Notes under the pieces: generated by a model
Seen by the model: only the letters and a program-made list of their open reading frames with translations
Told to the model about the DNA's origin: nothing
Databases searched by the model: none
Source: an uncultured bacterium
GTDB taxonomy: Bacteria > Verrucomicrobiota > Kiritimatiellia > RFP12 > UBA1067
Assembly (NCBI GenBank): GCA_902801025.1
Contig: CADCGZ010000028.1
Span: 2,264-66,263 of the forward strand
Direction: 5' to 3'
DNA: 64,000 nt
Translations under genes and position numbers: made by a program
Shown: one piece after another, positions 3,713-61,418 of the stretch
Position numbering within the stretch: the first letter of the stretch is position 1
Layout: each line of letters opens with the position of its first letter

Positions 3713-3970
3713 TTGCGCACTCACATTAATATTTGGTACAATTCCACAATCATGAAAGAAATCAAGTCAACATCAGACCTTGCAAGCATTGTCCGAGCGA
3801 CTCGTAAAAAGCAAGGAATCTCGCAGACTGTCTTGGCACAACTGTCAAATGTTGGGGTCAGATTTGTGTTCGATGTTGAAAATGGCAAGCCAACAGTCCA
3901 GTTTGACAAAGTGCTGTCCATTCTGCGCACGATGGGTGTAACGATGAAGTTTGAACTTCCACCGGAGTGA
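3713..3970 (+). CDS. hipB: XRE-family HTH antitoxin (HipB-like)
   Basis: 85-aa HTH_XRE (QGISQTVLAQLSNVGVRFVFDVENGK); 4 nt upstream of a HipA-like gene. Confidence 0.8.
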   Translation: MRTHINIWYNSTIMKEIKSTSDLASIVRATRKKQGISQTVLAQLSNVGVRFVFDVENGKPTVQFDKVLSILRTMGVTMKFELPPE

Positions 3971-3974
3971 TAGC

Positions 3975-5520: not shown

Positions 5521-7623
5521 ATGACGGAAGAGACAAAGGCCGCAACCGACTTCGGCGCCGATGTGTTCGGCGAAGAGGCGATCAACAAGTATTTGAGCAA
5601 GGACACGGCGAAGAAGCTCCAGGCGACGATTCGGGAAGGGAAGCCGCTCGATCCGTCGATCGCGGGCGAAGTCGCACATGGCATCCGCCACTGGGCGATG
5701 GATCGCGGCGCGACGCACTACACGCACTGGTTCCTCCCGATGACCGGCTCCACCGCCGAGAAGCACGACTCGTTCTTGGAACTCAAGGACGGCGAGCCGA
5801 TCATGCAGTTCAGCGGCAAGAACCTGATCGTCGGCGAGCCCGACGCATCGTCTTTCCCGTCTGGCGGCATCCGCTCCACCTTCGAGGCGCGCGGCTACAC
5901 CGCGTGGGATCCGACGTCGCCGGCGTTCATCAAGCGCCACTCGAACGGCGCCACCTTGTGCATCCCGACCGCGTTCTGCGCATACACGGGCGAGTCGCTC
6001 GACAAAAAGACGCCGCTTCTCCGCTCGATGCAGGCGCTCGACAAGTCGCTAAAGCGCCTCATGAAGCTCTTTGGGCGCGCCGAAGGCCATGCCGCGTGCA
6101 CGCTCGGCGCGGAGCAGGAATACTTCCTCATCGACAAGGGATACTGGAAGAAGCGTCCCGACCTCGTGCTTACGGGTCGGACGCTCTTCGGTGCTCCGTC
6201 CGCTAAGGGCCAGCAGCTCGAAGACCACTACTTCGGCACGATTCCAGATCGCGTCATTTCCTTCATGAACGACGTCGAGCGCGAGCTCTGGAAGCTCGGC
6301 ATCCCGGCGAAGACGCGCCACAACGAAGTCGCGCCCGCGCAGTTCGAGCTTGCGCCGCAGTTCGAGGAGCTCAACCTCGCGAGTGACCACAACATGCTCG
6401 TGATGGATACCTTGCGGAACGTCGCCGAAAAGCACGGAATGAAGTGCCTTCTCCACGAGAAGCCCTACGCGGGCGTCAACGGCTCTGGTAAGCACAACAA
6501 CTGGTCCGTCGCCTTCGGCGGCAGGAACCTCCTCGACCCGGGCAACGACCCGCACGAGAACGCCGTGTTCCTCACGATGCTCTGCGCCGTCATCGAGGCG
6601 GTAGACAAGCATGCCGACCTCCTTAGGGCCTCCGTCGCTGGTGCGGGCAACGACCACCGTCTCGGCGCAAACGAAGCGCCGCCCGCTGTCATCTCGATCT
6701 ATGTCGGCGACCAGCTCGCGGAAGTGCTCGACCGCATCGAGAATCCAAAGGGCGCGAAGCACGAGGAAAAGGGCTCCCTCAAGATCGGCGTCGACACGCT
6801 CCCCGCGATTCCGAAGGACGCGACCGACCGCAACCGCACTTCGCCTTTCGCGTTCACCGGCAACAAGTTCGAGTTCCGCGCTCCGGGATCGAGCGTCTGC
6901 TGCTCCGGCCCGATGACGGTCCTCAACACAATCGTCGCCGAGGCGGTAGACAGGATTGCCGCCGAGCTCGACGCCGCCAAGGTCGCCGGAAAGGCGAAGC
7001 CGGGCGAGCACACCGCGGCGTTCCACGTGGCTCTCCAGAAGATACTGCAGGCCTCGCTCAAGACGCACAAGCGCGTCGTGTTCAACGGCAACGGCTATGA
7101 GGCCGACTGGCCGAAGGAAGCCGAGAAGCGCGGTCTTCCCAATGCGCCAGACACGCTCTCCGCCCTGGCCGCGCTTTCGAAGAAGGAGAACGTCTCCCTC
7201 TTCGAGAAGTACGGCGTCATGACGAAGCGCGAGCTCAAGAGCCGCCACGAGATATTCCTCGAGGAATACGCCAACAAGGTGCGCATCGAAGGCAACACGG
7301 CGCTCGACATCGCAAAGACGATGATCCTCCCAGCCGTCCGCGCCGAGTATCTCGAGGTTGCGAAGGCCTACAACGAGACGGATTCCAGCAACGTGAAAAT
7401 CGCAATCGACATGCTTCACGGGCAGATGACGGAACTTGGCAGCGGACTCGTAAAGATGAAGGAGGCGATAGACTACTTGCAGGACGCGCTGAAGAACTAC
7501 GACACTGCGGACACCCTTGCGAGGATGGCCGAGCTCAGGAAGATCGCAGACTCGCTCGAGGCGGTCATCACGAGCGAAAAGTGGCCGCTTCCGAAGTACC
7601 GCGAAATGCTGTTCTTGTATTAG
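5521..7623 (+). CDS. glnN: Glutamine synthetase type III (GlnN)
   Basis: ~700 aa; GSIII N-terminal signature (YTHWFLPMTGSTAEKHDSF) and catalytic-domain motifs. The upstream in-frame extension to 5383 was rejected (implausible Arg-rich leader). Confidence 0.85.
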   Translation: MTEETKAATDFGADVFGEEAINKYLSKDTAKKLQATIREGKPLDPSIAGEVAHGIRHWAMDRGATHYTHWFLPMTGSTAEKHDSFLELKDGEPIMQFSGKNLIVGEPDASSFPSGGIRSTFEARGYTAWDPTSPAFIKRHSNGATLCIPTAFCAYTGESLDKKTPLLRSMQALDKSLKRLMKLFGRAEGHAACTLGAEQEYFLIDKGYWKKRPDLVLTGRTLFGAPSAKGQQLEDHYFGTIPDRVISFMNDVERELWKLGIPAKTRHNEVAPAQFELAPQFEELNLASDHNMLVMDTLRNVAEKHGMKCLLHEKPYAGVNGSGKHNNWSVAFGGRNLLDPGNDPHENAVFLTMLCAVIEAVDKHADLLRASVAGAGNDHRLGANEAPPAVISIYVGDQLAEVLDRIENPKGAKHEEKGSLKIGVDTLPAIPKDATDRNRTSPFAFTGNKFEFRAPGSSVCCSGPMTVLNTIVAEAVDRIAAELDAAKVAGKAKPGEHTAAFHVALQKILQASLKTHKRVVFNGNGYEADWPKEAEKRGLPNAPDTLSALAALSKKENVSLFEKYGVMTKRELKSRHEIFLEEYANKVRIEGNTALDIAKTMILPAVRAEYLEVAKAYNETDSSNVKIAIDMLHGQMTELGSGLVKMKEAIDYLQDALKNYDTADTLARMAELRKIADSLEAVITSEKWPLPKYREMLFLY

Positions 7624-9633: not shown

Positions 9634-10827
9634 ATGAACTATAGTGAAAAGTGGAAGGTGGAACGCGAACGCAAGGCGTATCTCGCACTTGCGGACGGCA
9701 CTGTGTTCCACGGCGTCGCTTTTGGCGCTAAGAAGGACGCGCTTGGCGAAGTCGTCTTCAACACCGGTATGTGCGGCTATCAGGAAATACTAACCGATCC
9801 AAGCTACGCCGGGCAGTTCGTCACGCTTACCCCCGCAGAAGTCGGTAACTACGGCATAAATGCCGAAGACATAGAAAGCCGCAAGTTGTTCTTATCGGGT
9901 CTTGTCATTGGCGATTTGACCGCGCCTAGCAACTGGCGCTCCGAAAAGAGCTTGGACGACTACCTGAAGGAGAACGGCGTACCTGGCATTTATGGCGTCG
10001 ATACGCGCGCTCTAACGTTGCACTTGAGAGATCATGGTAACCAGAAAGCCTTTCTGTACGTTGGGGAACGGGGAATGGGGAACGGGGAACGGGAGGCGGT
10101 TGCCAAGGCGCGTGAATGGGAAGGGCTCGACGGCCAGGACTATGCGGCAAAGGTGACATGCGAGAAGGGGTATGAGTTTAAGACAGGATTAACAGGATTA
10201 ACAAGATTATCTGGGGACATGTCCACAGACCCCAAAAATCCTGTAAATCTTGTAAATCCTGTCAAAAGAATAGTCTGCTACGACTTCGGCGTGAAGACAA
10301 ATATCCTCCGTTCGCTTGCGTCGTGGGCAAAGGTCACCGTCGTTCCCGCGAAGACGCCTGCTGAAGAAGTCCTCAAGATGAAACCTGACGGCGTGTTCCT
10401 CTCAAACGGCCCCGCCGACCCCGCGGCAGTTACCTACGCCATAGAGAACATCAAAAAGTTGTTGGGGCCACTTCCCATAATGGGAATTTGTTTGGGGCAT
10501 CAGTTGCTCTCGCTTGCCTGTGGTGCGAAGACTGGGCGGCTAAAGTTCGGTCACCACGGCTGTAACCATCCAGTGAAGAACCTTGCGACAGGCCATGTGG
10601 AGATAACGAGTCAGAACCACAACTTCGCAGTCTTGCCAGAGACGGTTCCGGATTGCCTTGAAGTCACGCACATAAACCTCAACGACAACTCTATCGAGGG
10701 TGTCAGGCACAAGACGCTTCCCGCGTTCTCGGTGCAGTACCACCCCGAGTCTTGCCCCGGTCCGCACGACTCAAAGTATCTCTTCGACGAATTCAGAAAG
10801 ATGGTATTAGCCGTGCAGAACGTGTAG
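9634..10827 (+). CDS. carA: Carbamoyl-phosphate synthase small (glutamine amidotransferase) subunit, with two in-frame repeat insertions in the inter-domain linker
   Basis: GEVVFNTGMCGYQEILTDPSY, CLGHQLL, GHHGCNHPV, YHPES motifs. Insertions: family A 10063-10095 (GERGMGNGERE) and family D 10183-10264. Confidence 0.9.
   Translation: MNYSEKWKVERERKAYLALADGTVFHGVAFGAKKDALGEVVFNTGMCGYQEILTDPSYAGQFVTLTPAEVGNYGINAEDIESRKLFLSGLVIGDLTAPSNWRSEKSLDDYLKENGVPGIYGVDTRALTLHLRDHGNQKAFLYVGERGMGNGEREAVAKAREWEGLDGQDYAAKVTCEKGYEFKTGLTGLTRLSGDMSTDPKNPVNLVNPVKRIVCYDFGVKTNILRSLASWAKVTVVPAKTPAEEVLKMKPDGVFLSNGPADPAAVTYAIENIKKLLGPLPIMGICLGHQLLSLACGAKTGRLKFGHHGCNHPVKNLATGHVEITSQNHNFAVLPETVPDCLEVTHINLNDNSIEGVRHKTLPAFSVQYHPESCPGPHDSKYLFDEFRKMVLAVQNV
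10063..10095 (+). repeat. Family A oligomer (ggggaacggggaatggggaacggggaacggg) in frame in carA
   Basis: Direct sequence identity to other family A cores. Confidence 0.65.
10183..10264 (+). repeat. Family D 82-bp palindromic element (acaggattaacaggattaacaagatt ... aatcctgtaaatcttgtaaatcctgt) in frame in carA
   Basis: Near-perfect inverted repeat around the ggggacatgtccacagacccc centre; translated KTGLTGLTRLSGDMSTDPKNPVNLVNPV where E. coli CarA has only a short linker. Confidence 0.7.
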
Positions 10828-10938: not shown

Positions 10939-12872
10939 ATGAAAAAGCAAGTCAAATACGTATTTATCACCGGCGGCGTGGTTAGCTCGCTTGGAAAGGG
11001 CGTCACAAGCGCGTCACTTGCGCTTCTCTTGAAGAGTCGCGGCTACAGGGTCTTCATGCAGAAGCTCGACCCGTATCTCAACGTCGATCCCGGCACGATG
11101 TCGCCCTACCAGCACGGCGAGGTGTTCGTGACAGACGACGGCGCAGAGACAGACCTCGACCTCGGCCACTACGAGCGTTTCGCGGGCGTGACGTGCTCTA
11201 AGGCGTCGAACTACACCTCTGGCCGTATCTACTCAGCCGTCCTCGCGCGCGAACGCGCGGGCGGCTACCTCGGCGGAACGGTGCAGGTCGTGCCGCACAT
11301 CACCGACGAAATCAAGGCGGCGATCAGGAGTGCCGGCGAAGCGCATGGCGACGAGCCCGCGCCAGACATCGTCCTCTGCGAAATAGGCGGAGTATCGGGC
11401 GACATCGAGTCGCTCCCGTTCCTCGAGGCCGCGCGCCAGTTCCGCTTCGAAGAGGGAAATGAGAACACTTGCTTCGTGCACCTGACGCTCGTTCCCTATC
11501 TCAAGGCGGCGGGCGAGCTCAAGACAAAACCGTCGCAGCACTCCGTCGGCATGCTGCGAAACATCGGCATCATCCCTGACATCCTTGTCTGCCGCACCGA
11601 AATGACGATTCCCGAGGAGCACCTCAAGAAGCTCGCCATGTTCTGCAACGTGAAGCGCGAGTGCGTAATCGAGGAAAAGGATGTCGCAGACTCTGTCTAT
11701 GCCGTGCCGCGCGAACTGCGCGAGCAGGGTCTCGACGAGCAGGTCTTGAGGCAGGTGCGTCTCGACCTTTGGCCGATTAAGCACACGGTCTGGGACACGC
11801 TCGTCCGCAAGGCGACGCAGCCGAAGAAGCGCTGCCGTATCGCCCTTGTCGGGAAGTACATCTCGATACGCGACGCCTACAAGTCAGTTCACGAGGCCTT
11901 GCAGCACGCCGGCATGGCAAACGACTGCAAGGTCGAAGTCGTGCCTATCGAAGCGGAAGAAATCTTAACGCAGAGGCGCAGAGGCGCAGAGGCGGGGAAA
12001 GAATCGTCCTCGTCTGCATCTGACGGCCAGCAAGCCGGCAAATCATCAAAATCTCTCTGCGACTCTGCGTCTCTGCGTTTAAAAAATATCGACGGCATTC
12101 TCGTCCCCGGCGGCTTTGGGTCGAGGGGTGTAGAGGGCAAGATCGCCGCGATCAAGTATGCACGCGAGAAGAAGATTCCGTTCCTCGGCATCTGCCTCGG
12201 CATGCAGTGCACTGTCATCGAGTATGCGCGCGATGTCCTCGGCTGGAAAGACGCCAACTCGACGGAGTTCGACGAGAACACCACGCACCCCGTGATCGAC
12301 TTGATGGAAGAGCAGCGCGGCGTCACGCAGAAGGGCGGCACGATGCGCCTCGGCGCTTATCCGTGCGTCCTCGAGAAGGGCTCTCTCGCTGATAAGCTGT
12401 ATAGCCACAAAGAACACAAAGATAACTCTGCGCCTCTCGGCACTCGCTTCGCTCGGCTTGGCTCGCTACAAAACGCGAGCCCCGCTTCCGCGGCGGTTAC
12501 GCGACTCTGCGTTAAAAACAAAGACGCGCCCATTATTTCCGAGCGACATCGCCACCGCTACGAGCTTGCGAATGGCGGCAAAGTGCAGAAGGCGCTGACG
12601 GCCGCAGGGCTCAATGTAAGCGGCACGTCGCCTGACGGAAAACTCGTCGAGATAGTGGAGCTGCCGGGCCACCCCTACTTCATCGCCTCGCAGTTCCACC
12701 CCGAGTTCAAGTCGCGCCCGACAATCCCGCATCCGCTGTTCAACGGCCTTGTAAAAGCCGCGTTGAGGAACGGGAAACGGGGAACGGGTAACGGGGAACG
12801 TATCCCCCGAGCGAAGCGAGTCGCCGAAGGCGATGCCCTAGCAGGGGTGGTAACGGGAAGAGGGAGTGAAGA

Positions 12873-12876
<4 letters not shown>
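10939..12876 (+). CDS. pyrG: CTP synthase (645 aa versus ~545 typical) with two large in-frame repeat insertions and a repeat-derived C-terminal extension
   Basis: N-terminal synthetase and GATase motifs ([31 protein letters not shown]). Insertions at 11964-12088 and 12422-12528 (family C) and a family A tail at 12768-12838. Confidence 0.9.
11964..12088 (+). repeat. Family C palindromic element (aacgcagaggcgcagaggcgcagagg ... ctctctgcgactctgcgtctctgcgtt), ~125 bp, in frame in pyrG
   Basis: Translated [36 protein letters not shown] in a surface loop relative to E. coli PyrG. Confidence 0.75.
12422..12528 (+). repeat. Composite family C/A-like insertion in pyrG (ctctgcgcctct...cgcttcgctcgg...cgactctgcgttaaaaa)
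   Basis: ~42-aa insertion ([43 protein letters not shown]) immediately before the conserved ERHRHRYE. Confidence 0.6.
12768..12838 (+). repeat. Family A element forming the pyrG C-terminal extension
   Basis: gggaaacggggaacgggtaacggggaacgtatcccccgagcgaagcgagtcgccgaaggcg, translated [21 protein letters not shown]. Confidence 0.7.
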
Positions 12877-16199
<3,323 letters not shown>

Positions 16200-39144: not shown

Positions 39145-42100
39145 ATGAAAAAGATGCTCCTTCCTTTTCTGGCCATTGTGGCCGTATTCTTTTGCTTCGC
39201 CGACGACGGCGAGAATCGTACTTCACCGGACGGGTTGAAGGTCCTGATGATCGGGAACAGCTTCTCGATCAGCTGCACGCGGCAGCTGCCGCTGGTCGCC
39301 GAGGCGAACGGGCACAAGCTCGACCTCGCCTCGCTCTATATCGGCGGATGCTCGCTCGAGCGCCACTGGCGGAACGTCGAGGCCGCCGCGACGAACGCGA
39401 CGTTCAAGCCCTACCGGTTCGACAGGTTTGTGGAAGGGCGGTGCGTCGTCGAGAAGGGTGCGGCGAACATCCCGGACGCGCTCGCGATGGACAAGTGGGA
39501 TGTCGTGACGCTCCAGCAGGCGAGCCACTTCAGCTGGGATCCAGCGACCTACCATCCGTGGGGCGACAATCTTGTCGCGAAGATCCGCGAGCTTGCGCCG
39601 CAGGCGAAGATCGTCGTGCAGGAGACGTGGAGCTATCCTCCGTGGGACAAGCGGCTCAAGAAGTTTGGCTTCGACCAGGTCGAGATGTATGCGCGCCTGC
39701 ACGACGCATACGCCGCCTTCGCGAAGAAGTACGGATTCGGCATAATCCCCGTCGGCACCGCGGCGGAGATATGCGCCGACCGCAACTCGCTCTTCACGAA
39801 GCCAGACTTCCATTTCAACCACGAGGAGGGCGAGTACCTCCAGGCGCTTGTCTGGGACGCTGCTATTTTCGGATTCAAAATCAACCAGTCGTGCGATTAC
39901 AGGCCGGAGGGCATGTCCGAAGCGAGGGCGGACGAACTGATGACGGCGGCAATTCTCGCGAACATTCATCGGCTTGGCGACGGCAAGGCCATGTCCGTCG
40001 ACCGCGCCTTCCGCGACGCGCGTGTGACGCGTGGCAACACCAACATCCTCCGCGTCCAGCCGATAGACGAGGCGTCGTGGGTGTGGCATCCAGGCGTGGG
40101 CGAGCCGAAAGCCGGAACGACTGATTTCTGGGACGGCGAGAGACACGGCAACCTGGTCGACGCGGGCTTGACGATACTCAAGTTCCGTAAGTCGTTCGAT
40201 GTCGCAGACGGCGACGGGACGCTTGTCTTCGATGTCTCGGCCGACGAGAGGTTCGTCCTGTTCCTCGATGGCAAGTTCGTTGCCCGCGGACCGAATCGCG
40301 GAACCGTGGAGAACTGGCAGTACCAGACATATATTGCCACGGACCTTAAGCCGGGGCGCCATATCTTCGAGGCGTATGTCCAACGGCTTGGCGACTTTGC
40401 GCCTCTTGCTCAGCTTTCGTATCGCGGCGGATTTGTCTTCAAGGCGAACGGCGCGTATGACGCTAAGCTGACGACAGGCAAGGCCGATTGGGAGGTAGGG
40501 CTTGTTCCCGGTGTCCGCTCCATTGGCAAGGCCGCTGGCGCGTGGGGCACGGGCTCGCAGTTCGAGATTGTTGGATGTGGGCCTTATTCTGGCGAGCCGA
40601 CGGAATGGAAGAAGTCCGTCATTGTGCGTGGCGCCGCAGGGTCAAAAGGGCCGCGGATCTATGGTGGACGGACGAGCGGCTGGATGCTTTTCCCGTCGCA
40701 GATTCCCGATCAGACTGAATATCCATGTGTCCCAGGGCACGTCAAGGCGGTTGCGAAGGGCGCCGAGTTCCGCAGTCAGCATGTATACACTGAGGACGAG
40801 GCGAAGGAGACGGTTGACCTAACTAAGCCGTTCACCGTTCCCGCGAACACGAAGATGCAGCTCGCATGGGATCTCGGGCGCTACTACTGCGCATATCCAG
40901 ATGTCGTTCTCTCCGGCGGCAAGGGGGCAAAGTTCGCGATCTGCTTCGCTGAGGCATCGCATCGTGGCGACAATCACCTCAAGACAAGCGAGCCGAATGC
41001 ACGCGACTTGATCGTCGGTCGCTATCTTCCCGCGTTCGGCGATACGTTTGTGAGCGACGGACGGAAGGACGCAAAGTTTTCCGCGCCGTGGTTCCGCTGC
41101 GGAAAGTGGGTTCGCATCGACATCGAGACGAAGGACGAGCCGCTGACGGTCGACGCCGTAGGGCTCGTCGAAAGCCGCTATCCCGTCGAGATGGAGAGCG
41201 TCTTTTCGTCGCCCGACGATCCGTCGCTCGGCGCCATACGCGACATATCGGCGCGCGCGATGCAGATGTGCTGCCACGAAATGCTTTTCGACTGCCCGTT
41301 CTACGAACAGCAGATGTATCCGGGCGACACGCGCGTCCAGCTGAACGTCCTTTCGGCGATGTCGCGCGACGACCGCATCGTCAAGCGCGCGATCGAGATA
41401 TACGACCTCAATACGCGCGACGACGGGCAGTGTCCGTTCAACTTCCCGACGCGCGGTACGCAGGAGGGCGCGAGCTACACGCTTTGCTATCTTCTTATGT
41501 ACGGCGACTACGTGATGAACCATGCCGACCGCGAATGGCTGAGGGCGCGTCTCCCTGGCTTAAGGAAGTCGATGGCGGGAATGGAATACTACGAGAACAA
41601 GGACGGCCTTCTCGAGGATATCCCCGGGTGGAACTTCATGGACTGGGTCGTTGGCTGGGATGGCGACGGAACCGCGCCCGGCTGCCGGTTCGGCGACGGC
41701 GTGAACGCGGAACTCAATCTCTATTGGAACCTTGCGATGCGTTCCGCTGCCGCAGTTGAGCGCGCGCTTGGCAACGAGTTGCAGGCGAAATACTGGGAAG
41801 AGAAGTCGGACAAGCTCAAGCAGGCGGTTGTCAAGACGTTCTGGGACGAGAAGCGCGGCATTTTCGCCGACACGCCTGCGAAGAAGGATTTCTCGGAACA
41901 CGCTCAGGCGCTTGCGCTTCTTGGCGACGTCCTCCCTGCGGGCAAGGCCGAGACGACGTTCCGGCATCTCGTCGATGACAAGGACCTCAAGCGCTGCACC
42001 GTGTATTTCTCTTACTACCTCTTCGAGACATATTTCAAGTTCGGGCGCGGCGACCTTTTCTTGAAGCGCCTCGACCTCTGGCGCGACTACGTCAAGAAGG

Positions 42101-42480: not shown

Positions 42481-44874
42481 ATGTATCTAAAGCAGCTCGA
42501 CATAGTCGGATTTAAGAGTTTCGCCGACAAGACGAAGCTCACCTTCGATCCTGGCCTTATCGCCATCGTGGGTCCGAATGGCTGCGGCAAATCCAACGTC
42601 TCCGATGCGATCCGCTGGGTGCTTGGCGAGCAGCGTCCTACGGCGCTCAGGTGCTCGAAGCTCGTTGATGTCGTCTTCAACGGCACCGACACGAGAAAGC
42701 CCCTTGGCCTTGCGGAAGTAACGATCACCTTTGCGGACTGCGAGAAGGAGCTTGGCACCGACTACCACGAGGTGACGATACAGCGCCGCGTCTATCGCGA
42801 CGGCTCGGGCGAATATTTCCTAAACAAGCAGCCGTGCCGTCTCAGGGACATCCAGCACCTCCTGATGGGCACCGGCATCGGCACGTCGTCCTACTCCGTC
42901 ATGGCCCAGGGCCAGATCGACGCGATTCTCTCTTCAAAGCCGGAGGACCGCCGCGGCGTGTTCGAGGAAGCGGCTGGGATCACGAAGTTCAAGGCCGACC
43001 GCAAGGAGGCCCTGAGGAAGATCGAGCAGACCGAGCAGAACCTGCTGCGCGAAGCCGACGTCCTCAAGGAGATGAAGCGCCAGATCGGCTCTCTCCAGCG
43101 TCAGGTCGGCAAGGCGAAGAAGTACAAGGAACTTCACGACGAGCTGCGCGTCCTCGATATCTACGTTTCTCGGCAGAAGATCAAGGCCTTCGACGAGGAG
43201 CTTGTTCAGAACGCGTCGAACAGGCGCGACATCGACAAGTCGATTGAAGAAGCGTCTGGTGCCGTGGCCGAGGCGGAGCGCGGACAGCAGGAACTTCACG
43301 CCCAGGTACACGAGCTCGAGGAGCGTCTCCAGTCGCTCGCGTCACGCCAGGCGGCGGCGGACAACGCCTACAGCCGCGCCAACGAAGTCATCGGCGTGAA
43401 CGCGCAGCGCATCGAGGAGTACGGCCAGTTCGCGGAGCGCGACGAGCGCGAGATAGCCGACGCAAAGGCGCAGCTCGAGGAAATCGCGATGCAGGTCGAT
43501 TCCCTCGACCAGAAGACGCGTCTTCTTACCGAGTCGCTTGCCACGGCGAAGGATGCGCTCGCCGAGAGCGAGGCCGCGTTTTCCGAGATTCAGGCGAAGA
43601 TCGACGAGAAGCGCAGCGACGTACAGCGCCGCAGGCACGAAATCGCGAACACTACGCTTACGGGCATTCTCGCGGAGGACGCTAAAGTCTCGCGCGAGGG
43701 CAAGACTGAGACTTGGCCCGCCGGCACAAAGGTCACGACGGCCGACAGGCGCGAGATACTCATGGCCGAGATCGCTGCGAGCGAGGACGAACTGCGGACG
43801 CTTGAAGTCTCCACGATGTCGGTTTCCCAGCAGCTCACGGAGCGTCGTATCGCGACGAGCCAGATGGAGCAGGAACTTTCGTTCGTCGGCCAGCAGAACG
43901 ATTCTGCGCGCCGTCGCCGCGACGAGCTGCAGAGGGCGGTCGACGGGCGTCTCGAGGGCATACAGCGCTATCATGACTCCATAGCGCGTCTCAAGGAGGA
44001 GTCGGGCGATCTTCTCGGACAGCTCGAGGAACTGAAGGCCGCGGCTGCGGACTGCCGCGCCGAGATGGAAGACGAGCGAGCCCGTCGCCAGACGATGTTC
44101 GAGAGGATTGCCGAAGTCGACCGCGACGTAGCGGCGAAGCGCGCCGAGCTCGACCGTGCGCGCGACTTCAGGGGCAAACTCGAAGTCGCCGCAGCAGAGG
44201 CGACGATGCGCCGCCAGAACATCTACGACCACCTTCAGGACGAATACGGCCTATTTGCCGACGCGGTCCTGCGCGAGCCCGACCCCAAGTGGGAGGACGG
44301 CGTGGAGCCGCCGCATGCAGAGCTCGAGGCCAAGGTGGCGCGGCTCCAGTCCGAAATCGCCGCGCTCGGGCCGGTCAACATGGTTGCAATCGACGAGTGC
44401 CGCGAGCTCGAGGAACGCTATGCGAAGGAGAAGGCCCAGGAAGAGGACCTCTTGGCGGCGAAGGCGCAGATACTTTCGCTCATCGACAACCTGAACCTCA
44501 CGTCGAGCGAGATGTTCAAGAAGACGTTCGAGCAGGCGAACGCCAACTTCCAGACGATGTTCACGCGGCTTTTCGGCGGCGGCGAGGCGCGGCTCGTGCT
44601 TTTGGACAACGAGGAGGACCCGCTTGAATGCGGCATCGACATCATTGCGCGTCCTCCGGGCAAGCGTCCGCAGAGCGTGACGCTGCTTTCCGGCGGCGAA
44701 CGCACGATGACGGCCGTCGCGCTTCTCTTCTCGATCTTCATGATCAAGCCCGCGCCGTTCTGCATGCTCGACGAGCTCGACGCCGCGCTTGACGATGCGA
44801 ACATCGGCAGGTTCCGTCAGCCGCGTAATCTCCATGAAGCTCAGCGACCTCGGCGCAGGTGCAGGCAAGAAGAA
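42481..44874 (+). CDS. smc: SMC-family chromosome segregation ATPase, atypically short (~798 aa): no recognisable hinge, C-terminus truncated after Walker B, and continuous in frame with lpxB in this sequence
   Basis: N-terminal head (GPNGCGKSN, FEEAAGITKFK), long coiled coil, signature LSGGERTM and Walker B LDELDAALD. Then only ~20 residues before the lpxB Met; the H-loop (QFIVITH) is missing. A -1/+1 alternative frame would terminate at a TGA overlapping the lpxB ATG. Confidence 0.6.
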
Positions 44875-45978
44875 ATGAAGCTGCTCGTTCTCGCCGGTGA
44901 GGAGTCGGGTGTCCACTACGCGGAGCGGATATCTGCGGCAGTCCGCACGCGCCGCCCCGATGTGGAGATACGCGGCTATTCCGACTACGGGTTCAAGACC
45001 GCCGACCTCGCGGTGTTCGGGATATGGGCGGTCTTGAGGCGGATATTCTTCTTTCTCAGGGTGAAGCGCACGATGGTTCGTGCTATCGACGAGTGGAAGC
45101 CAGATGTCGTCTGCACGATAGACTATCCCGGCATGAACCTGAAGCTCGCGGCCTACGCTAAGTCGAAGGGCATCAAGGCGGTTCACGTAGTCTGTCCGCA
45201 GGTCTGGGCTTGGCACCAGGGCCGCATACCGCGCATAGAACGCTCTCTAGACAAGATCTGCTGCTTTTTCCCGTTTGAACCGGCGATATTCCGCCCTGGG
45301 CTCGCCGAGTTCGTCGGCCATCCTCTCGCGCAGGAATTTGAAGGCGGTGCGAACGGCGGCGAGGGGAGGCGCGAGAAGGGTCTTGTTGCGCTACTCCCCG
45401 GTTCGCGTCTCGGCGAGATCGAAAAGCACCTCCCGACGCTTCTTGAGGCAGTCGCGACGCTTGAGGGGATTCGCGTTGCGATTCCTGCCGCGAACGAACG
45501 CGCACGTGCCGCGATTGAAAGAATCGTGGCCAATTTCAAAACCAAGCTTTCAACTTTAAACTTTAAACTTTCAACTCTAACTGTCCAGTCGGGTGGCGCA
45601 CGCGAACTTCTTCGCCGTGCCGATGTCGCTGCAGTGGCGAGCGGAACGGCGACGCTTGAGGCCGCGCTTGCCCGTTGCCCGACTGTTCTCGTCTACAAGG
45701 TAGGTCCCATTCTCGCAGCGTTCCTGCGACGCGCGATAAACGGCGTGAAGCATGTCGGGCTTGCGAACATCATCGCCGAGAAGTCTGGCGCGGAATGTCC
45801 GATGCCAGAGCTCCTTCAGGAGAATTTCACCGTCGAGGCCGTGCGCGGCTATCTTGAACGCTGGCTGGGCGACCCTGCGTCGCGAGCGGAAGCGGCAAAG
45901 AAGCTCGACAAGACGCTTGAAATGCTCGAGAGTAGCGGCGACGCCTACGCTCGCATTGCCGATGCGCTACTGGCGTAA
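44875..45978 (+). CDS. lpxB: Lipid-A-disaccharide synthase LpxB, with an in-frame family F repeat insertion
   Basis: [12 protein letters not shown]..., [21 protein letters not shown] motifs; insertion at 45530-45592. Confidence 0.8.
45530..45592 (+). repeat. Family F tandem repeat (ctttcaact / ctttaaact units) in frame in lpxB
   Basis: aatttcaaaaccaagctttcaactttaaactttaaactttcaactctaactg. Confidence 0.65.
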
Positions 45979-45992
45979 AAGGAGTGCTAAAT

Positions 45993-46934
45993 ATGGAACT
46001 GGTAAAGAAAATAAAGGCGAAGGCGCGGGAGAGCGTCAAGCGCATTGTGCTGCCTGAGGGCGACGAGCCGCGCACGGTTGCGGCGGCGAAGATCATTCGT
46101 GACGAGGGGATTGCGGAGCCGATCTTGCTTACGAAGGATTTTATCGAAGCTCCTTCCAACAAGCCAAAGCTTGACGCCTATGCCGCGGCACTCTATGAAC
46201 TTCGCAAGGCGAAGGGGCTTACTGAGGATGCGGCGGCAAAGCTTGCGACGGATCCGATGTACTATGGCATGATGATGGTCAAGCTTGGCGACGCCGACGG
46301 GCTTGTCTCCGGCGCAGTGCATTCGACTGGCGACATGCTGCGGCCGGCGCTACAGATAATAAAGACTGCGCCCGGTATGAAGCTCGTCTCGTCGAGCTTC
46401 CTCATGGAGTGTCCAAACCGGGAGATTGGCGAAGACGGGCTTCTCGTCTATGCCGACTGCGTGGTGAATCCCTGCCCGAATGCCGAGGAGCTCGCCAATA
46501 TCGCCGTTGCCACAGCCGAAACGGCTCGTAAGCTCTGCGGCATTGCAGAGCCGCGCGTCGCGATGCTATCTTTTTCCACGAAGGGCAGCGCGAACCATGC
46601 GCTCGTCGATAAGGTGCAGGAGGCGACGCGTATCGCCCGCGAGCTCGCGCCAGATCTTGCTCTCGACGGCGAATTACAGTTTGACGCGGCGCTCGTTCCA
46701 GCAGTTGCCGCGCAGAAGGCCCCTGGGAGCCCTGTCGCCGGACGTGCGAACGTGCTCGTCTTTCCGGACCTCCAGGCGGGCAACATCGGCTACAAGATCA
46801 CGCAGCGTCTCGGAGGCGCGAAGTGTTTCGCCGTCCTGCAGGGACTCGCGATGCCGTGCAACGACCTCTCGCGCGGATGCTCTGTCGACGACATCGTGAA
46901 CACTGTCGCCGCTACTGCCGTCCAGGCAGGGTAA
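45993..46934 (+). CDS. Phosphate acetyl/butyryl-transferase family protein (PTA_PTB)
   Basis: C-terminal catalytic domain motifs ([25 protein letters not shown]). RBS aaaggag 9 nt upstream of ATG 45993; the ORF track uses GTG 45984. Confidence 0.7.
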
Positions 46935-46974
46935 GACGATCAAGTCGGGGTGGCATTGACTAACGACCGCAAAA

Positions 46975-46985
46975 TGCGGTATAAT
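46975..46985 (+). promoter_or_regulatory. -10 region TGcGGTATAAT upstream of secG, with RBS aaaggaaag
   Basis: atgcggtataatatcacttcataagcgaaaggaaagcaaaATG. Confidence 0.4.
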
Positions 46986-47013: not shown

Positions 47014-47487
47014 ATGTCTATTCTCATCGGTTTTCTCTATGTAGTCGAAGTCCTGGTCTGCATCCTTCTGGCGATGGTCGTTATGCTCCAGAAGCCGAAA
47101 GAGGGCGGCCTTGGCGGTGCGTTCGGCGGCGGCATGCTCGAGGCGTCTCTCGGTGCCGATGCGGGCAACGTCCTGATCCGCACGACGGCGATCCTCGGCG
47201 CGATTTTCCTTCTTAACACGCTCGTTCTCGCGCGTCTTACCTCGACCGTCCACTCCCGCAGCCTGATGGCGCGCGAGGCGGAGCCTGCGGCCGAGACCGC
47301 GCCCGCGCTTCCCGCGGCTCCCGAGCTTCCTGCGGTTCCCGAAGTGCCCGCTGCTGCGCCCCAGGCGCCTGCAGCACCCGCGCCCGCTGCCCCTGCAGCT
47401 GCTCCCGCGCCCGCTCCTGCGGCGCCGGCTCCTGCTGCCCCTGCGGCGCCGGCTCCTGCGGCTCCTGCCGCGCCTGAAGCTAAGTGA
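47014..47487 (+). CDS. secG: Preprotein translocase subunit SecG with a low-complexity Ala/Pro-rich C-terminal tail
   Basis: Two TM helices and the LGGAFGGG glycine-rich SecG motif; tail of (A/P) repeats encoded by tandem DNA repeats at 47290-47470. Confidence 0.8.
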   Translation: MSILIGFLYVVEVLVCILLAMVVMLQKPKEGGLGGAFGGGMLEASLGADAGNVLIRTTAILGAIFLLNTLVLARLTSTVHSRSLMAREAEPAAETAPALPAAPELPAVPEVPAAAPQAPAAPAPAAPAAAPAPAPAAPAPAAPAAPAPAAPAAPEAK

Positions 47488-56211: not shown

Positions 56212-57609
<1,398 letters not shown>

Positions 57610-57610
57610 T

Positions 57611-57650
57611 TGTCAGGGGTCAGTGCATAGGAGTCAGGAGTCAGTTGTAA
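57611..57650 (+). repeat. Family E tandem repeat after the FHA-MoxR gene / before the DUF58 gene
   Basis: gtcaggggtcagtgcataggagtcaggagtcagttgtaag. Confidence 0.65.
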
Positions 57651-57656
57651 GGTGAG

Positions 57657-58586
57657 ATGAAAAGTCCAGGATATATGAAGTGGCTGCCGCCGAAGACGAC
57701 GGCTACCATTTCGCGCTGCGAGTTCTTCGGGCGCACGATGAAGTCCGGATTCATATCCGGGCGTCACCGTTCGCCCAAGAAGGGCAACTCCGTCGAGTTC
57801 GCCGAGCATCGCCAGTACATGCCTGGCGACGACTTGAGAACGCTCGACTGGAAAGTGCTTGGCAGAAAAGACCGCCTCTACATCCGCCAGTACGAGGAAG
57901 AGACGAATCTCCGCACGACGATCCTCCTTGACTGCTCGGGGTCGATGGCCTACGGCGGTGACGCTGCGGCCGAGCTCGACGGACAGAAGCTCACCAAGTT
58001 CGACTACGCGAGGTATCTCGCAGCCGGCATCACCTACATGTTCGCGGGCCAGCAGGACGCAATAGGGCTAGTCACCTTCGACACGAAGATACGCGAGTAC
58101 CTTCCCGCGAAATCGTCTGCGTCTCAGACGCGGCGCATCCTCGAGTTCCTCGACAAGTCGAAGCCGGGCGGCGAGACCGATCCCGCGCCGGTCATCAACG
58201 ATATCGCGGAGCGGATTCCCTCTCGCGGGCTCGTGATCGTCATCTCCGACCTCTTTACCTCGGACGCCGACGGGCTCATAAAGGCGCTCCACCACTTCAC
58301 GTACCGCAAGCACGAGATCGTCGTCCTTCACGTGATGGCCGAGGAGGAGCTTACTTTCGGCTTTGACGGGCATGTCCATTTCGAGAACCTCGAGGGGCCC
58401 GACGAGATGATGATCGACGCGAAGTCGATCAGGGCGAGCTACCTCGAGCAGGTCAACGCGTTTCTCAAGAAGATCGGCGACGGCGTCAGGAAGACAGGCG
58501 CGGACTACGCGCCGATGAACACTAAAATACCGTTCGACAAGGCGCTCGTCGAGTATCTGTCGCGCAGGCGGAGCGGAGGGAGGTAG
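57657..58586 (+). CDS. DUF58-family protein (vWA-like partner of MoxR ATPases)
   Basis: DUF58 signature (EF.e.R.Y.PGDD.R.IDWK...R....YIR.YEEE) and vWA-like DxSxS (LLDCSGSM). Confidence 0.75.
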   Translation: MKSPGYMKWLPPKTTATISRCEFFGRTMKSGFISGRHRSPKKGNSVEFAEHRQYMPGDDLRTLDWKVLGRKDRLYIRQYEEETNLRTTILLDCSGSMAYGGDAAAELDGQKLTKFDYARYLAAGITYMFAGQQDAIGLVTFDTKIREYLPAKSSASQTRRILEFLDKSKPGGETDPAPVINDIAERIPSRGLVIVISDLFTSDADGLIKALHHFTYRKHEIVVLHVMAEEELTFGFDGHVHFENLEGPDEMMIDAKSIRASYLEQVNAFLKKIGDGVRKTGADYAPMNTKIPFDKALVEYLSRRRSGGR

Positions 58587-58589
58587 TCC

Positions 58590-61418
58590 ATGCAGTTCAT
58601 AAACATGGCGATGCTCTTCGCGCTCTCGGCCGTCGCGATACCGATCATCATCCAGCTCCTCACCCGCAAGAACGCGAGGAAGATCCAGTGGGGCGCGTGG
58701 CTGTTCCTCGACAAGACGATGAAGAAGCGCAAGAGGAAGGTGCTTCTCGAGGACATTCTCCTGCTTGCGAGCCGTTGCCTCGCGGTGGGGCTTCTCGCGC
58801 TCGCGTTCGCGCGTCCGTTCGTGAGGCCCGACTCTCCTGTCCCGTGGGCGGTCACGATGCCAATGATGCTCATCTCCATCGTCGCGATAGGAATCTCGTT
58901 CGCCCTCTGGCGCTATCCGAAGCACCGGCTCTGCATGATGGCGTTCGGCATTCTCCTCTTCGTCCTGTCGATAGCGACGATCGTGTTTGAGCGCCAGTTG
59001 AACCTCAAGCGCTTCGGCCTTGGTGCGACAAAGGACGTCGTTCTCATAATCGACGGATCCGCTTCGATGTCGATCGTGAACGACGGGAAGTCAAACTTCG
59101 AGCGCGCGATAGAGGAGGCGAAGAAGTACGTCGAGCTTGCCCCGCGCAACACGTCGTTCGCCGTGATCATCGGCGGCCCCGTTCCGCAGGTGATGAACCC
59201 CGTGCCGATCGCAGACAAGCGCGTGATCCTCTCGACGCTCGACCGCCTCTACATTGCGAACGGCACCATGCAGATCGCGGGCAACCTCACTGCGGCGGCG
59301 GTCACTCTCGCCGCAGGCCACAACGCCGTCAAGCAGATTGTCATCGTCGGAGACGGCCAGACCGTCGGATGGCAGCTTGAGGACAAGGAGCGCTGGAAGA
59401 CCATAGGGCGCGTCTTCTCGTCGCTCAAGACCCAGCCGATAGTCACGTGGCGCACACTGCCGCTTCCCACCTCCATGAGAAACCTCGCCGTCGGCGCCGT
59501 GCGCCCTTCGAGGGACATTGTCGGCACCGACCGCGAAGTGAATCTCCAGGTCACGGTTGTCAATGCCGGTACCGAGGCCGTGACGCCGAAGGGCGTGTCG
59601 CTCACGGCCGAAGGCGAAGTGAAGAAGGCGCACGACCTGAGGCAGCTGGAGCCAGGCGAATCGCAGACTTTTACGTTCACGCACCGCTTCAAGAAGCCCG
59701 GCGGCACAATCGTCTCGGCGAAGGTCGACTCTGGCGATGACCTGCCCGCCGACGATGTCTACAAGTACGCGATGCCGGTTCTCGACAGCCTGCGGGTCCT
59801 TCTCGTAGAAGGCAGCCCGGGCGCACCGCTGATGAAGCGCTCCGCAACTTACACGGGGCTTGCGCTCCGTCCCGAGATGGCGGCTCTCACGGGAGAGGCG
59901 CAGGGCAGGGAATTCCTTCTCGAGACAATTGTCGAGGACGTGACGACCGCCGGCAGGCGCCGCGGCTTCGGCGGGTTTTCCGCAGTCGTGCTCGCCGGCG
60001 TCAGGCGGCTTTCCGACGAGACGCGCGACGCGCTCGCGCGGTTTGTCTCGCTTGGAGGCGGGCTTCTCGTCATGCCTTCGCCAGGGATGGACGGCAAGTT
60101 CTTCGATGAATGGGAGTTCGAAGGCAGGAAGGTTCTCCCCGCGCCCTTCGGCAAGTGGCGCAAGAACGAGTCCGCGCTCGATCCCGACGGCTTCCGCGAG
60201 ATGTTCGCGAGGTTCCGCACCGGCACGGACCTCGGCTCCGCGACGCCGGAGAGGGTGATGGACTTCGGCGAAGGATGGTCGTCGAACGCCGTGGTGGTGG
60301 CGAAGCTCGCCGACGGGGCTCCGTTCGCCATCACGCACAACTTAGGGCGCGGCATGGTGGTCGAGACGGCCGCTCTCTTCGACGCCGCCTCCGGGCTAGT
60401 CTCGAAGCGCGGGTTTGTGCCGATGGTGCACGAGCTTGCCTATTCTCTTGCGCGCCCTGCGTCAGTCTCGCTCGACGTCCGTCCCGCAGAGGGTCTTACA
60501 CTGCTAGTCGCGAGCGGCGCGTCCGGTACCGAGGTGTCCGGCGAGTCGGGTATCATGGGGTACTACTTCCCGAAGATCGGCTGCCTCGGCAAACCAGTCT
60601 CTCGCGTCGACAAGAACATCGCGTTCAACTGGGGCGGCGGCGGGCCGATGCAGGAAATCCCCGGCGACAACTGGTCCGCGCGCTGGCGCGGCGTCCTCAA
60701 GGTTCCCGAGACGGGCAACTACAAGATATGGTGGGATGTAGACGACCGCTTCTGGCTCAAGATCGGCGGCAAGGACGTTCGCTCCCACTCGTCCGTCAAG
60801 CTTGAAAAGGACAAGCCCTACGCCATTGAAGGCCGATTCGAGGAGGACGGCGGAATCGCGTTTGTCAACCTCAATTGGCAGATGCCGAACGGCAAGCGCG
60901 GGCAAATCCCGTCTTCGGTGTTCTTTACGAGCGCGGCCGGCGTAGAAGGGGCGGGCGAGGTCGTGGAGATGTCCGATCCACACGGCGAGACGTTCTATGC
61001 CGAGATGTTCCAGGGCGACGAAGGGCTGTTCCTTCGCATAACTCGGAGCGTCATCCCAGGCGTATACACCGTAAACGCCATTCCCGACGTGCTGAAGGAT
61101 GCCTGCCGCGGCGTGATTGACTTCGAGGGCAAGATACGCTTCACGGTCTCGTCGGGAGTCGAGGAATCGACGATGACGGCCATCACTCAGAACGAGCTTT
61201 CAGACCTCTGCAACTACGTCCAGATATCGCAGGCCATCAAGGACGAAGACGTCATAAAGGCGATTGGCGGCCAGAGCTTCGGCAAGGAAGTCTGGCGCGT
61301 TCTCGCGTTCGTCGCGTTCCTGTTCCTCGTCGCGGAGCCTGCGATTGCGCGCTGGATCGCGATAAACAGGCGCACTGGCGACATAATCGACACGGAGGGA
61401 TCATGGATCAGAACGTAA
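58590..61418 (+). CDS. Large membrane protein: BatA-like aerotolerance-regulator N-terminal domain + vWA domain + PA14/GLEYA-like domain + C-terminal TM anchor
   Basis: N-terminal TM helices with the BatA-like MQFINMAMLFAL...LTRKNAR motif; vWA MIDAS (VLIIDGSASM); PA14-like block (GDNWSARWRGVLKVPETGNYKIWWDVDDRFWLKIGG). Confidence 0.65.
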   Translation: MQFINMAMLFALSAVAIPIIIQLLTRKNARKIQWGAWLFLDKTMKKRKRKVLLEDILLLASRCLAVGLLALAFARPFVRPDSPVPWAVTMPMMLISIVAIGISFALWRYPKHRLCMMAFGILLFVLSIATIVFERQLNLKRFGLGATKDVVLIIDGSASMSIVNDGKSNFERAIEEAKKYVELAPRNTSFAVIIGGPVPQVMNPVPIADKRVILSTLDRLYIANGTMQIAGNLTAAAVTLAAGHNAVKQIVIVGDGQTVGWQLEDKERWKTIGRVFSSLKTQPIVTWRTLPLPTSMRNLAVGAVRPSRDIVGTDREVNLQVTVVNAGTEAVTPKGVSLTAEGEVKKAHDLRQLEPGESQTFTFTHRFKKPGGTIVSAKVDSGDDLPADDVYKYAMPVLDSLRVLLVEGSPGAPLMKRSATYTGLALRPEMAALTGEAQGREFLLETIVEDVTTAGRRRGFGGFSAVVLAGVRRLSDETRDALARFVSLGGGLLVMPSPGMDGKFFDEWEFEGRKVLPAPFGKWRKNESALDPDGFREMFARFRTGTDLGSATPERVMDFGEGWSSNAVVVAKLADGAPFAITHNLGRGMVVETAALFDAASGLVSKRGFVPMVHELAYSLARPASVSLDVRPAEGLTLLVASGASGTEVSGESGIMGYYFPKIGCLGKPVSRVDKNIAFNWGGGGPMQEIPGDNWSARWRGVLKVPETGNYKIWWDVDDRFWLKIGGKDVRSHSSVKLEKDKPYAIEGRFEEDGGIAFVNLNWQMPNGKRGQIPSSVFFTSAAGVEGAGEVVEMSDPHGETFYAEMFQGDEGLFLRITRSVIPGVYTVNAIPDVLKDACRGVIDFEGKIRFTVSSGVEESTMTAITQNELSDLCNYVQISQAIKDEDVIKAIGGQSFGKEVWRVLAFVAFLFLVAEPAIARWIAINRRTGDIIDTEGSWIRT

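Follow-up and report, generated by a model that had tools for sequence, protein, structure and literature searches.

The 1165-aa SMC-LpxB reading frame is best explained by two things together: a natural hinge-less "mini-SMC" in the host lineage and a 113-nt loss specific to one assembly, most likely an artefact. We consider this joint explanation probable.

Organization of the fused ORF

The window (the whole 64,000-nt stretch of DNA analysed) contains a 1165-aa ORF at 42481..45978 on the + strand, uninterrupted for 1165 codons. Based on the Pfam annotation, SMC_N occupies residues 2-779, covering only profile positions 1-180 of 220, LpxB is located at residues 802-1123, and no match to SMC_hinge was found in the ORF. 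Against the NCBIfam model TIGR02168 (SMC_prok_B), the ORF scored 742 bits, with a cut-off of 567. Together with the motif positions, the Pfam matches confirm the predicted architecture, namely an SMC without a hinge fused to a complete LpxB. This product is on record from 1 contig only. The features of the ORF are as follows (the signature, Walker B and D-loop were assigned by aligning the ORF with 3ZGX, the head of B. subtilis Smc).

42481..44814, + strand: smc codons 1-778, comprising N-head, N-arm, apex, C-arm and C-head to the D-loop and IGRF
42571..42594, + strand: Walker A, GPNGCGKS, residues 31-38, invariant in the 115-sequence family alignment
43651..43740, + strand: 30-residue apex replacing the hinge, TTLTGILAEDAKVSREGKTETWPAGTKVTT, residues 391-420, a predicted small beta-hairpin unit
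44686-44700, + strand: ABC signature, LSGGE
44758-44775, + strand: Walker B, FCMLDE
44776-44793, + strand: D-loop, LDAALD
44803-44814, + strand: IGRF, the end of the SMC sequence in the fused ORF
44814/44815, + strand: deletion junction, at which 113 nt (GTCGAC...GAGAAGGG) kept in all relatives are absent
44815..44874, + strand: 20-residue out-of-frame read-through "linker", RQPRNLHEAQRPRRRCRQEE
44816..44878, + strand: authentic smc 3′ end in the original frame, last 20 residues, with the TGA overlapping the lpxB ATG (ATGA)
44875..45978, + strand: intact lpxB, 367 aa and stop, ATG at 44875

The 113-nt deletion

The smc part of the window is colinear with the intact 836-aa orthologue and shares 99% amino acid identity with P0001. 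When the DNA was aligned with that of a relative whose protein is 99% identical, a clean 113-nt gap was observed; the intact sequence at this site reads GTCGACCAG...GAGAAGGG, and the window junction reads GGTTC/CGTCAG. The missing nucleotides encode VDQLKEFLVNSQFLIITHNQHTIAGSDLVYGVSQQEKG, including the H-loop His796, and their loss takes out SMC residues 779-816 of 836, that is, the H-loop and two core beta-strands. The truncation and the fusion to LpxB both result from this deletion: it shifts the frame by +1, because of which the smc frame misses its own TGA and enters lpxB. Thus, of the causes originally put forward, a deletion/fusion event describes the sequence correctly, and a 1-nt error or frameshift is ruled out by the 113 nt absent from the alignment. 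No usable microhomology was found at the junction, where one extra C is retained. A microhomology-mediated in-frame deletion was also rejected, since the CGTC repeats predict a loss of 114 nt, yet the window keeps the extra C.

According to the original prediction, the H-loop and about 50 terminal SMC residues were missing in every frame. The loss of the H-loop was borne out, but exactly 38 residues (779-816) are gone, and the last 20 persist at 44816-44878 in a shifted frame, where the predicted TGA overlapping the lpxB ATG was indeed located. A complete C-head with the H-loop histidine and the terminal beta-strands is absent from the window (SMC_N ends at 180/220); in the 22 relatives with an intact smc, the C-head is complete (SMC_N 1-219/220) and H796 is invariant. 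Judging by its sequence, the window allele, lacking the H-loop and core head strands, could not form a working ATPase. The suggestion of a non-functional condensin is appropriate for this allele but not as far as it relied on the missing hinge, which is the conserved state of the clade.

Comparison with sibling and relative loci

The deletion site was compared in 23 loci: 11 near-identical siblings and 12 more distant relatives (nine GTDB species genomes, L001 and two JGI contigs). The 113 nt were retained in all 23, and the 836-aa smc was intact in 22 of them, including all 12 distant relatives, in which it ends in ATGA. On 17 other contigs, 11 of which were examined, a stand-alone gene encodes an LpxB protein identical to that of the window. 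The longer of the 11 siblings are 98-100% identical to the window at the nucleotide level over up to 21 kb, and L095, L096, L099 and L101 show zero mismatches. Nevertheless, private deletions were found in L095 (14 nt), L096 (42 and 68 nt, the latter in smc) and L101 (76-77 nt), and L001 has its own deletion of ~71 nt. Such private frameshifting deletions hit unrelated core genes (pta, GH genes and smc) across different assemblies.

The dN/dS value for the window smc versus nine relatives was 0.03. Furthermore, the displaced smc tail exhibited four differences from the more distant relatives, all of them synonymous in the original frame; therefore, selection acted in that frame. These data bear on the possibility that SMC-LpxB is an evolved bifunctional protein joining chromosome organisation to membrane lipid A synthesis. 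It would fit with a frame that stays open through the whole ORF, with the translational overlap (ATGA) of smc and lpxB in the clade and with the failure to find a promoter- or terminator-like site between the two genes. However, the fused ORF was found in 0 of the 23 related loci, 11 of them near-identical, the linker is frame-shifted smc sequence, the H-loop and core ATPase strands are deleted, and the displaced tail diverges only synonymously in its old frame. From the sequences compared, an evolved fusion protein is effectively refuted, and its probability appears negligible.

The lesion is most likely an assembly artefact, because it is private to one assembly and short private deletions also occur at other sites in the siblings. 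Scattered private deletions accompanied by zero SNPs would be expected of assembly errors rather than of biology. It is less likely that the deletion represents a very recent private loss-of-function mutation. In that case smc would be a fresh pseudogene in the sampled strain, and LpxB would come either from the SMC(delta-C)-LpxB fusion or from internal initiation at the lpxB ATG. Such an event would agree with a junction repeat too short for de Bruijn collapse, with one non-templated C at the junction, as real end-joining can leave, and with a different 68-nt lesion in the smc of a clonal sibling. In several bacteria, smc is dispensable at slow growth. At the same time, the window and its siblings differ by zero SNPs over 21 kb, whereas unrelated core genes contain several private deletions that shift the frame; the dN/dS of 0.03 gives no sign of relaxed constraint, and the allele occurs on one contig only. 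Hence, we regard a real deletion as unlikely.

It should be noted that some observations count against an artefact. There is no long repeat at the junction to explain a k-mer collapse, and without it the junction must come from at least some reads or from scaffolding. In addition, the smc lesion in sibling L096 can be read as recurrent real inactivation.

The fusion and truncation have no biological importance of their own, but they are a warning that metagenome assemblies can contain short private deletions, by which spurious fused or split genes arise. Here, the fusion also caused SMC sequences to be clustered with LpxB sequences at the 90% protein level.

LpxB and the smc-lpxB gene order

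The LpxB part matched Pfam PF02684 with 212 bits (cut-off 22.6) and TIGR00215 with 172.6 bits, just below the cut-off of 190, and was 92-96% identical to the 359-366-aa LpxB proteins of the clade. As a lipid-A-disaccharide synthase (PF02684, GT19), this 367-aa C-terminal part is complete and conserved, and the sole difference from a stand-alone LpxB is the upstream frame entering the gene, in this assembly only. The adjacency of smc and lpxB, with the 4-nt ATGA overlap, was present in 23/23 comparison loci. It had been considered unusual, but it is the normal gene order of one genus-level clade, to which it is confined; the remaining members of the family lack it.

Hinge-less SMC in gut and rumen Kiritimatiellia

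Gut and rumen Kiritimatiellia possess SMC orthologues of ~835, 886 or 1098 aa without a Pfam hinge. The hinge-less set includes 79 species-level loci in GTDB species genomes (~70 related species) and hundreds of metagenomic sequences, and the 79 loci fall into three monophyletic size classes. The best 120 database matches were 830-886 aa long, save one protein of 1115 aa. Further short SMC-like proteins of 948-995 aa (P0164, P0234, P0237, P0273 and P0278) represent clusters of only 1-4 sequences, mostly singletons.

No Pfam match to SMC_hinge (PF06470) was obtained even at E<=1 in P0001, P0094 and P0116, and no hinge-only PDB chains were matched by the family profile. The hinge-less SMC scored 815 bits against TIGR02168 (cut-off 567), and its best PDB match was the B. 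subtilis Smc head. On the basis of these searches, the absence of the hinge is genuine and lineage-wide, and the dN/dS estimate of ~0.03 indicates that the hinge-less SMC is under strong purifying selection. The prediction of no recognisable hinge was thus upheld, but its interpretation as a lesion or degeneration was not, given its conservation in the whole gut Kiritimatiellia clade. In full-text literature searches, we failed to find a description of a hinge-less SMC in PVC/Kiritimatiellia or of a stepwise series.

The nearest outgroup of the hinge-less proteins, P0135, is a 1188-aa SMC from a ruminant-gut Kiritimatiellia MAG, in which the Pfam hinge is present. This hinge-bearing sister shares 58% identity with the hinge-less SMC, and their heads are 85% identical. 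The alignment to P0135 reveals internal deletions in the hinge-less SMC, the apex of which corresponds to the last hinge hairpin. The existence of this canonical protein leaves some room for the ~835-aa protein being a specialised paralogue (e.g., for repair or defence) beside a canonical hinge-bearing SMC elsewhere in the genomes. However, the hinge-less proteins reach the TIGR02168 equivalog score, and P0135, with its similar heads, has the position of a long-branched outgroup and not of a co-resident copy. Moreover, the rpoZ-smpB upstream synteny is common to canonical and reduced smc genes in some lineages, and no defence-type neighbours were seen at the loci. A specialised paralogue therefore seems improbable, and the equivalog score, the head identity and the synteny also speak against the degenerate SMC paralogue proposed originally. 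Among the 39 ORFs of the window scanned with Pfam, none encoded ScpA or ScpB.

Arms and apex

The arms of the hinge-less SMC comprise ~236-240 aa per strand, roughly 110 below the nearest canonical relative. In the full-length AF2 model, which was used for helix boundaries only on account of its poor heads (pLDDT 69, pTM 0.31), helices span residues 155-390 and 421-589 onward. The apex lying between them is fixed in length, with W412, G415, T416 and T420 invariant, and has no cysteine pair in 115 sequences. An AF2 fragment model gave a helical hairpin (pLDDT 87.9) with strands at residues 401-405 and 408-412.

In canonical SMCs, the last hinge hairpin is a strand pair with a glycine-rich dimer-interface motif. 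The apex matches the terminal hairpin in the canonical hinges of P0135 and T. maritima 1GXL, which suggests that these 30 residues are what is left of this last hairpin. A Foldseek search of PDB with the apex fragment yielded nothing significant (best E 5.6e-3), the non-significant matches including prefoldin and V-ATPase D as topological analogues only.

Comparison with known SMC systems

The closest known system is the Smc of Smc-ScpAB (B. subtilis heads, PDB 3ZGX/5XG3), which is alike in head sequence, motifs and antiparallel coiled-coil arms; residues 1-217 and 627-827 of the query could be aligned with the B. subtilis head construct. Unlike B. subtilis Smc, the Kiritimatiellia protein has no hinge (PF06470), and its arms are ~236-240 aa long versus ~340. 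In B. subtilis Mini-Smc, arm windows of 253-267 aa support Smc function, with a natural mode at 238 aa (Burmann et al. 2017, PMC5344682), on which the Kiritimatiellia arms fall. A foreign non-hinge dimeriser, the Rad50 Zinc-hook, can also stand in for the hinge in B. subtilis Smc (PMC5344682). However, Mini-Smc and Smc(Zinc-hook) are laboratory constructs keeping a bona fide dimeriser, whereas the Kiritimatiellia apex has no CxxC and is a putative dimeriser.

A "hinge-less" SMC clade with heads and coiled coil, without a hinge or zinc hook, was reported from ocean metagenomes (Environ Microbiome 2025, PMC12153180); it is a coherent environmental clade, placed close to marine Actinobacteria and diverging strongly from reference sequences. 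The Kiritimatiellia clade differs from it in its gut/rumen origin, in its 1098- and 886-aa intermediates and in having a canonical sister at 58% identity. SMC-type motors without a toroidal hinge are also known among Wadjet JetC of types II/III and Rad50/SbcC (PMC12647877). Both belong to other families than the Kiritimatiellia SMC: the Rad50 NCBIfam models give 50-63 bits versus cut-offs of at least 700, the CxxC zinc hook of Rad50/SbcC is absent from the Kiritimatiellia apex, and JetABD-type neighbours are absent beside the Kiritimatiellia genes.

Proposed model and its significance

Based on the above results, we suggest that the normal SMC of the gut/rumen Kiritimatiellia host is a natural hinge-less 836-aa "mini-SMC". 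The canonical ATPase heads are kept, and the ~160-aa hinge is replaced by the conserved 30-residue beta-hairpin apex. The reduction may have proceeded from a canonical protein of 1188 aa through a degenerate half-hinge of ~1098 aa to the 30-aa hairpin of the ~835-886-aa proteins. In parallel, each arm strand would have lost roughly 100-115 residues, which corresponds to about one ~100-residue "allowed" length step. It is possible that the 836-aa SMC still acts as a chromosome organiser of the Smc-ScpAB type. Its dimerisation could be provided by the remnant hairpin and/or by head-kleisin contacts, as suggested by the homology of the hairpin to the hinge and by the non-significant prefoldin analogy; the hairpin would then serve as a minimal element for dimerisation, with a topology resembling that of prefoldin tips. 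The full proposal, that a hinge-less Smc is the sole SMC by which gut and rumen Kiritimatiellia organise their chromosomes, that the hinge was cut stepwise with shortening of the arms and that the hairpin serves as the minimal dimeriser, has in our estimation an even chance of being correct.

In SMC motors, dimerisation and DNA binding are attributed to the hinge, which is also viewed as a possible gate. If the above proposal is true, the toroidal hinge, with the DNA-binding and gate functions assigned to it, would be dispensable for native Smc-ScpAB. The phenomenon has a precedent in the hinge-less marine clade reported in 2025 (PMC12153180). In the Kiritimatiellia clade, intermediate forms exist, purifying selection is strong, the arms match the 238-aa mode and the remnant hairpin is conserved. 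As a well-sampled natural clade, it may provide material for testing the essential hinge functions and the natural quantisation of arm length.

The fused reading frame

One uninterrupted reading frame in the window joins an SMC protein to LpxB. Its parts are as follows.

42481–45978, + strand: SMC–LpxB ORF of 1165 aa, uninterrupted (window sequence)
44803–44814, + strand: IGRF, the last sensible SMC sequence of the ORF (frame translation)
44816–44878, + strand: authentic SMC C-terminus of 20 residues in the neighbouring frame, its TGA overlapping the lpxB ATG
44875, + strand: Met of the complete LpxB, twenty residues past IGRF

Pfam placed SMC_N on ORF residues 2–779, covering only profile positions 1–180 of 220, and the LpxB domain on residues 802–1123; SMC_hinge had no Pfam match in the 1165 aa. 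The NCBIfam model TIGR02168 (SMC_prok_B) scored 742 bits (cut-off 567), and Walker A, the signature motif, Walker B and the D-loop were each found in the SMC part. The ORF call and Pfam confirm the original prediction of SMC head halves without a hinge, followed some 20 residues on by a complete LpxB, and the SMC indeed ends in the neighbouring frame at a TGA overlapping the lpxB ATG. The claim that the H-loop and the last ~50 residues are absent in every frame was only partly right: residues 779–816, including the H-loop, are gone, but the final 20 residues are still encoded.

A protein search matched an intact SMC orthologue (P0001, 836 aa, 99% identical) with a complete C-terminal head, in whose contig (L001) smc meets a separate 360-aa lpxB at an ATGA overlap. 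According to the DNA alignment against L001, exactly 113 nt (GTCGAC...GAGAAGGG) are missing from the window between 44814 and 44815. The lost codons correspond to VDQLKEFLVNSQFLIITHNQHTIAGSDLVYGVSQQEKG (SMC residues 779–816). In an alignment with PDB 3ZGX, the Smc head of B. subtilis, these residues span the helix past the D-loop, the strand of the H-loop, where His796 is invariant, and the next strand. Since 113 = 3 × 37 + 2, the smc frame shifts, its own stop is bypassed and the frame enters lpxB. A CGTC direct repeat lies on both sides of the site; CGTC recombination would take out 114 nt and the window keeps one extra C, so the junction has no clean microhomology.

Distribution of the deletion

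Three tiers of sequence comparison agree that the deletion is private to the window's assembly. Nine GTDB species-representative genomes (L002–L008, L051) plus L001 (ENA), from the same genus-level clade and with 92–95% nucleotide identity, have smc intact at 836 aa and overlapping lpxB by ATGA. Both JGI contigs retrieved by a lineage-specific 32-mer out of the window's tail retain the 113 nt, and the JGI contig L082 has the same tail as the window. The window's exact LpxB protein is recorded on 17 other contigs, and the third comparison covered eleven of these. The eleven siblings share the upstream 1098-aa glycosidase gene with the window and match its nucleotide sequence with 98–100% identity across stretches of up to 21 kb, with zero mismatches in L095, L096, L099 and L101. 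The 113 nt are retained in 11/11, and smc is an intact 836-aa gene in ten, that of L096 being broken by its own 68-nt deletion.

An evolved SMC–LpxB fusion is extremely improbable, given that the 1165-aa product is on record from one contig only and the 113 nt are present in every comparison locus. The window smc gave a dN/dS of 0.03 against its relatives (dS 0.25–0.39), and in the displaced 20-codon tail four changes separate the window from more distant relatives, all synonymous in the original frame; thus, selection kept acting on an intact smc until essentially the present. A real lesion, private and very recent, is unlikely. The truncation and the LpxB fusion are almost certainly not biology, and the 113-nt deletion is probably an assembly artefact.

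Short private deletions were also found in related contigs over the regions homologous to window 34.9–55.9 kb. L095 lacks 14 nt of a GH2 gene; L096 lacks 42 nt of the glycosidase gene (window 41724–41765) besides the 68 nt of smc (window 44371–44438); L101 lacks 76–77 nt of pta (window 46376–46451); and L001, a ~94%-identical relative, lacks ~71 nt of pta. Frameshifting deletions in unrelated core genes together with zero SNPs are the pattern of assembly or scaffolding errors, not of evolution. These deletions resemble a type of assembly artefact that recurs and yields split or fused genes, and one misassembled ORF can corrupt protein clustering. The 90%-identity cluster of P0001 (417 members) contains 836-aa SMC and 360–367-aa LpxB proteins, joined through the presumably artefactual 1165-aa fusion.

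Two further hinge-less smc genes, both in GTDB MAGs, are broken: on L015, a contig with 7x coverage, by a TAG at the invariant Q461 (6688–6690), and on L050 by a frameshift located between residues 91 and 100 (~10273–10318). Counting both, the background of broken smc among these MAGs is ~3%. Nine Kiritimatiellia smc contigs (L025, L028, L040, L042, L043, L052, L068, L070, L079) have been assigned to bins named Lachnospira hominis, Azospirillum sp., Methanomethylophilaceae archaeon, Muribaculaceae, Faecalibacterium, Alistipes, Barnesiella and Anaerovoracaceae, which are evidently mislabelled or contaminated.

Gene order and other genes of the window

The smc–lpxB juxtaposition, originally considered unusual, is the norm within the genus-level clade (23/23 comparison loci, smc being intact in 22) but is absent from all 61 other family loci with enough downstream sequence. 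No promoter-like or terminator-like site was found between the two genes, and their ATGA overlap suggests translational coupling. The adjacency is a recent gene-order change with no functional linkage of note. A 7-aa tandem duplication in LpxB (window 45544–45582) is shared by the window and its clonal siblings as well as by L003, L004 and L051, while L001, L002 and L005–L008 lack it; it is an indel polymorphism within the clade.

A strong match to a sigma-70-like promoter (TTGACT-18-TATAAT, 11/12; window 46956–46985) lies just upstream of secG, and no comparable site was found among smc, lpxB and pta. SecG (157 aa, 47014–47487) has its Pfam domain at residues 7–73 only and, from ~47272, an Ala/Pro-rich low-complexity tail of ~70 aa (PAAPAPAAPAA...). 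The 645-aa CTP synthase (10939–12876), flanked by carA (9634–10827) and carB (12873–16199), matches the 190-position GATase profile over residues 310–606, implying an insertion of ~100 aa. Genes at 56212–61418 encode a MoxR-type AAA ATPase (465 aa, N-terminal FHA), then a protein with DUF58 and one of 942 aa with BatA/VWA/CARDB/PA14, a Bat/aerotolerance-like operon with an unusual FHA fusion. A HipA-like serine/threonine kinase (Couple_hipA + HipA_C; 3951–5225) is a candidate type II toxin.

The hinge-less SMC family

The hinge-less state itself is genuine, conserved and lineage-wide. The best 120 database matches, all at least 72% identical, are 830–886 aa long except one of 1115 aa, and none has a precomputed hinge domain; those with names belong to Kiritimatiellae/Kiritimatiellia MAGs and to 'Candidatus Colisoma equi'. 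Scanning the GTDB species genomes yielded 79 loci, and almost all of them come from MAGs of rumen, gut or faeces. By length, the translated genes form three groups, and a rough NJ tree recovers each group as monophyletic.

SMC size classes
~835 aa: 46 genes intact, another interrupted by a nonsense codon and a further one by a frameshift
~886 aa: 9 genes
~1098 aa: 15 genes

P0001 scored 815 bits on TIGR02168, and its best solved relatives are the Smc heads of B. subtilis and other prokaryotes. No hinge was detected in the family by Pfam at E ≤ 1 or by searching PDB with the family profile.

When the representatives of 50%-identity clusters were searched exhaustively, the nearest matches were mostly full-length SMCs of ~1100–1400 aa, with a few shorter ones. 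The closest, P0135 (1188 aa, 58% identical), belongs to a Kiritimatiellia MAG from ruminant gut, and Pfam places a hinge at its residues 525–630. Aligned with P0135, the short forms (P0001 and the other reduced members P0094 and P0116) are internal deletions: the 1098–1115-aa form keeps full-length arms and a partial, degenerate hinge, while in the 886-aa and 835-aa forms the hinge is gone and each arm strand is shorter by roughly 100–115 residues. The tip remnant KVSREGKTETWPAGTKV aligns with VVRADGISEVWMPGSAA at the extreme end of the P0135 hinge, and this segment of P0135 aligns with LISGRGAITGG in 1GXL, a hinge structure from T. maritima. We take this to be the glycine-rich terminal hairpin at the SMC hinge dimer interface. 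The arms of P0001 and P0135 are 52–61% identical. The rpoZ-smpB pair lies directly upstream of the canonical gene and 1–6 kb upstream of several reduced ones, supporting positional orthology.

The view that an SMC lacking its hinge is degenerate does not fit a fixed-length apex with invariant residues, P0001 heads 85% identical to those of P0135 and the shared rpoZ-smpB. The apex has a fixed 30 residues in 115 sequences, with W412, G415, T416 and T420 invariant, and AlphaFold2 modelled residues 340–470 as a helical hairpin with short beta-strands at the tip (mean pLDDT 87.9). Foldseek matched the apex fragment only to V-ATPase subunit D and to subunits of prefoldin, in all cases non-significantly. 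Prefoldin builds its oligomerisation barrel from hairpins at the tips of coiled coils; the prefoldin-like tip is a lead, not evidence, for apex oligomerisation.

The arm strands span about 236 aa (N) and about 240 aa (C), coinciding with the major mode of natural prokaryotic Smc arm lengths (238 aa), while P0135 is near another mode at 341 aa (PMC5344682); therefore, about one '~100-aa step' has been lost. In B. subtilis, the Smc hinge fold can be replaced by the Rad50 zinc hook with function kept (PMC5344682). Purifying selection acts on an SMC whose heads are canonical, whose arm is short and tuned, and whose hairpin apex is conserved. From apex conservation, the model, head identity, synteny, arm length and hinge replaceability, we argue that this is a working protein, not a decaying one. 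It would pair with ScpAB as other Smc proteins do, and may dimerise via the remnant hairpin, possibly through an intermolecular sheet, and/or via heads and kleisin.

A 2025 study of ocean metagenomes described a clade of 'hinge-less SMC' proteins (PMC12153180), and another paper discusses how the hinge 'donut' was lost in Wadjet types II and III (PMC12647877). Given these precedents, and as full-text searches found no description of a hinge-less SMC in Kiritimatiellia, the family adds to a known phenomenon. It is probably a second, independent natural hinge loss, and is much better sampled, with evolutionary intermediates.
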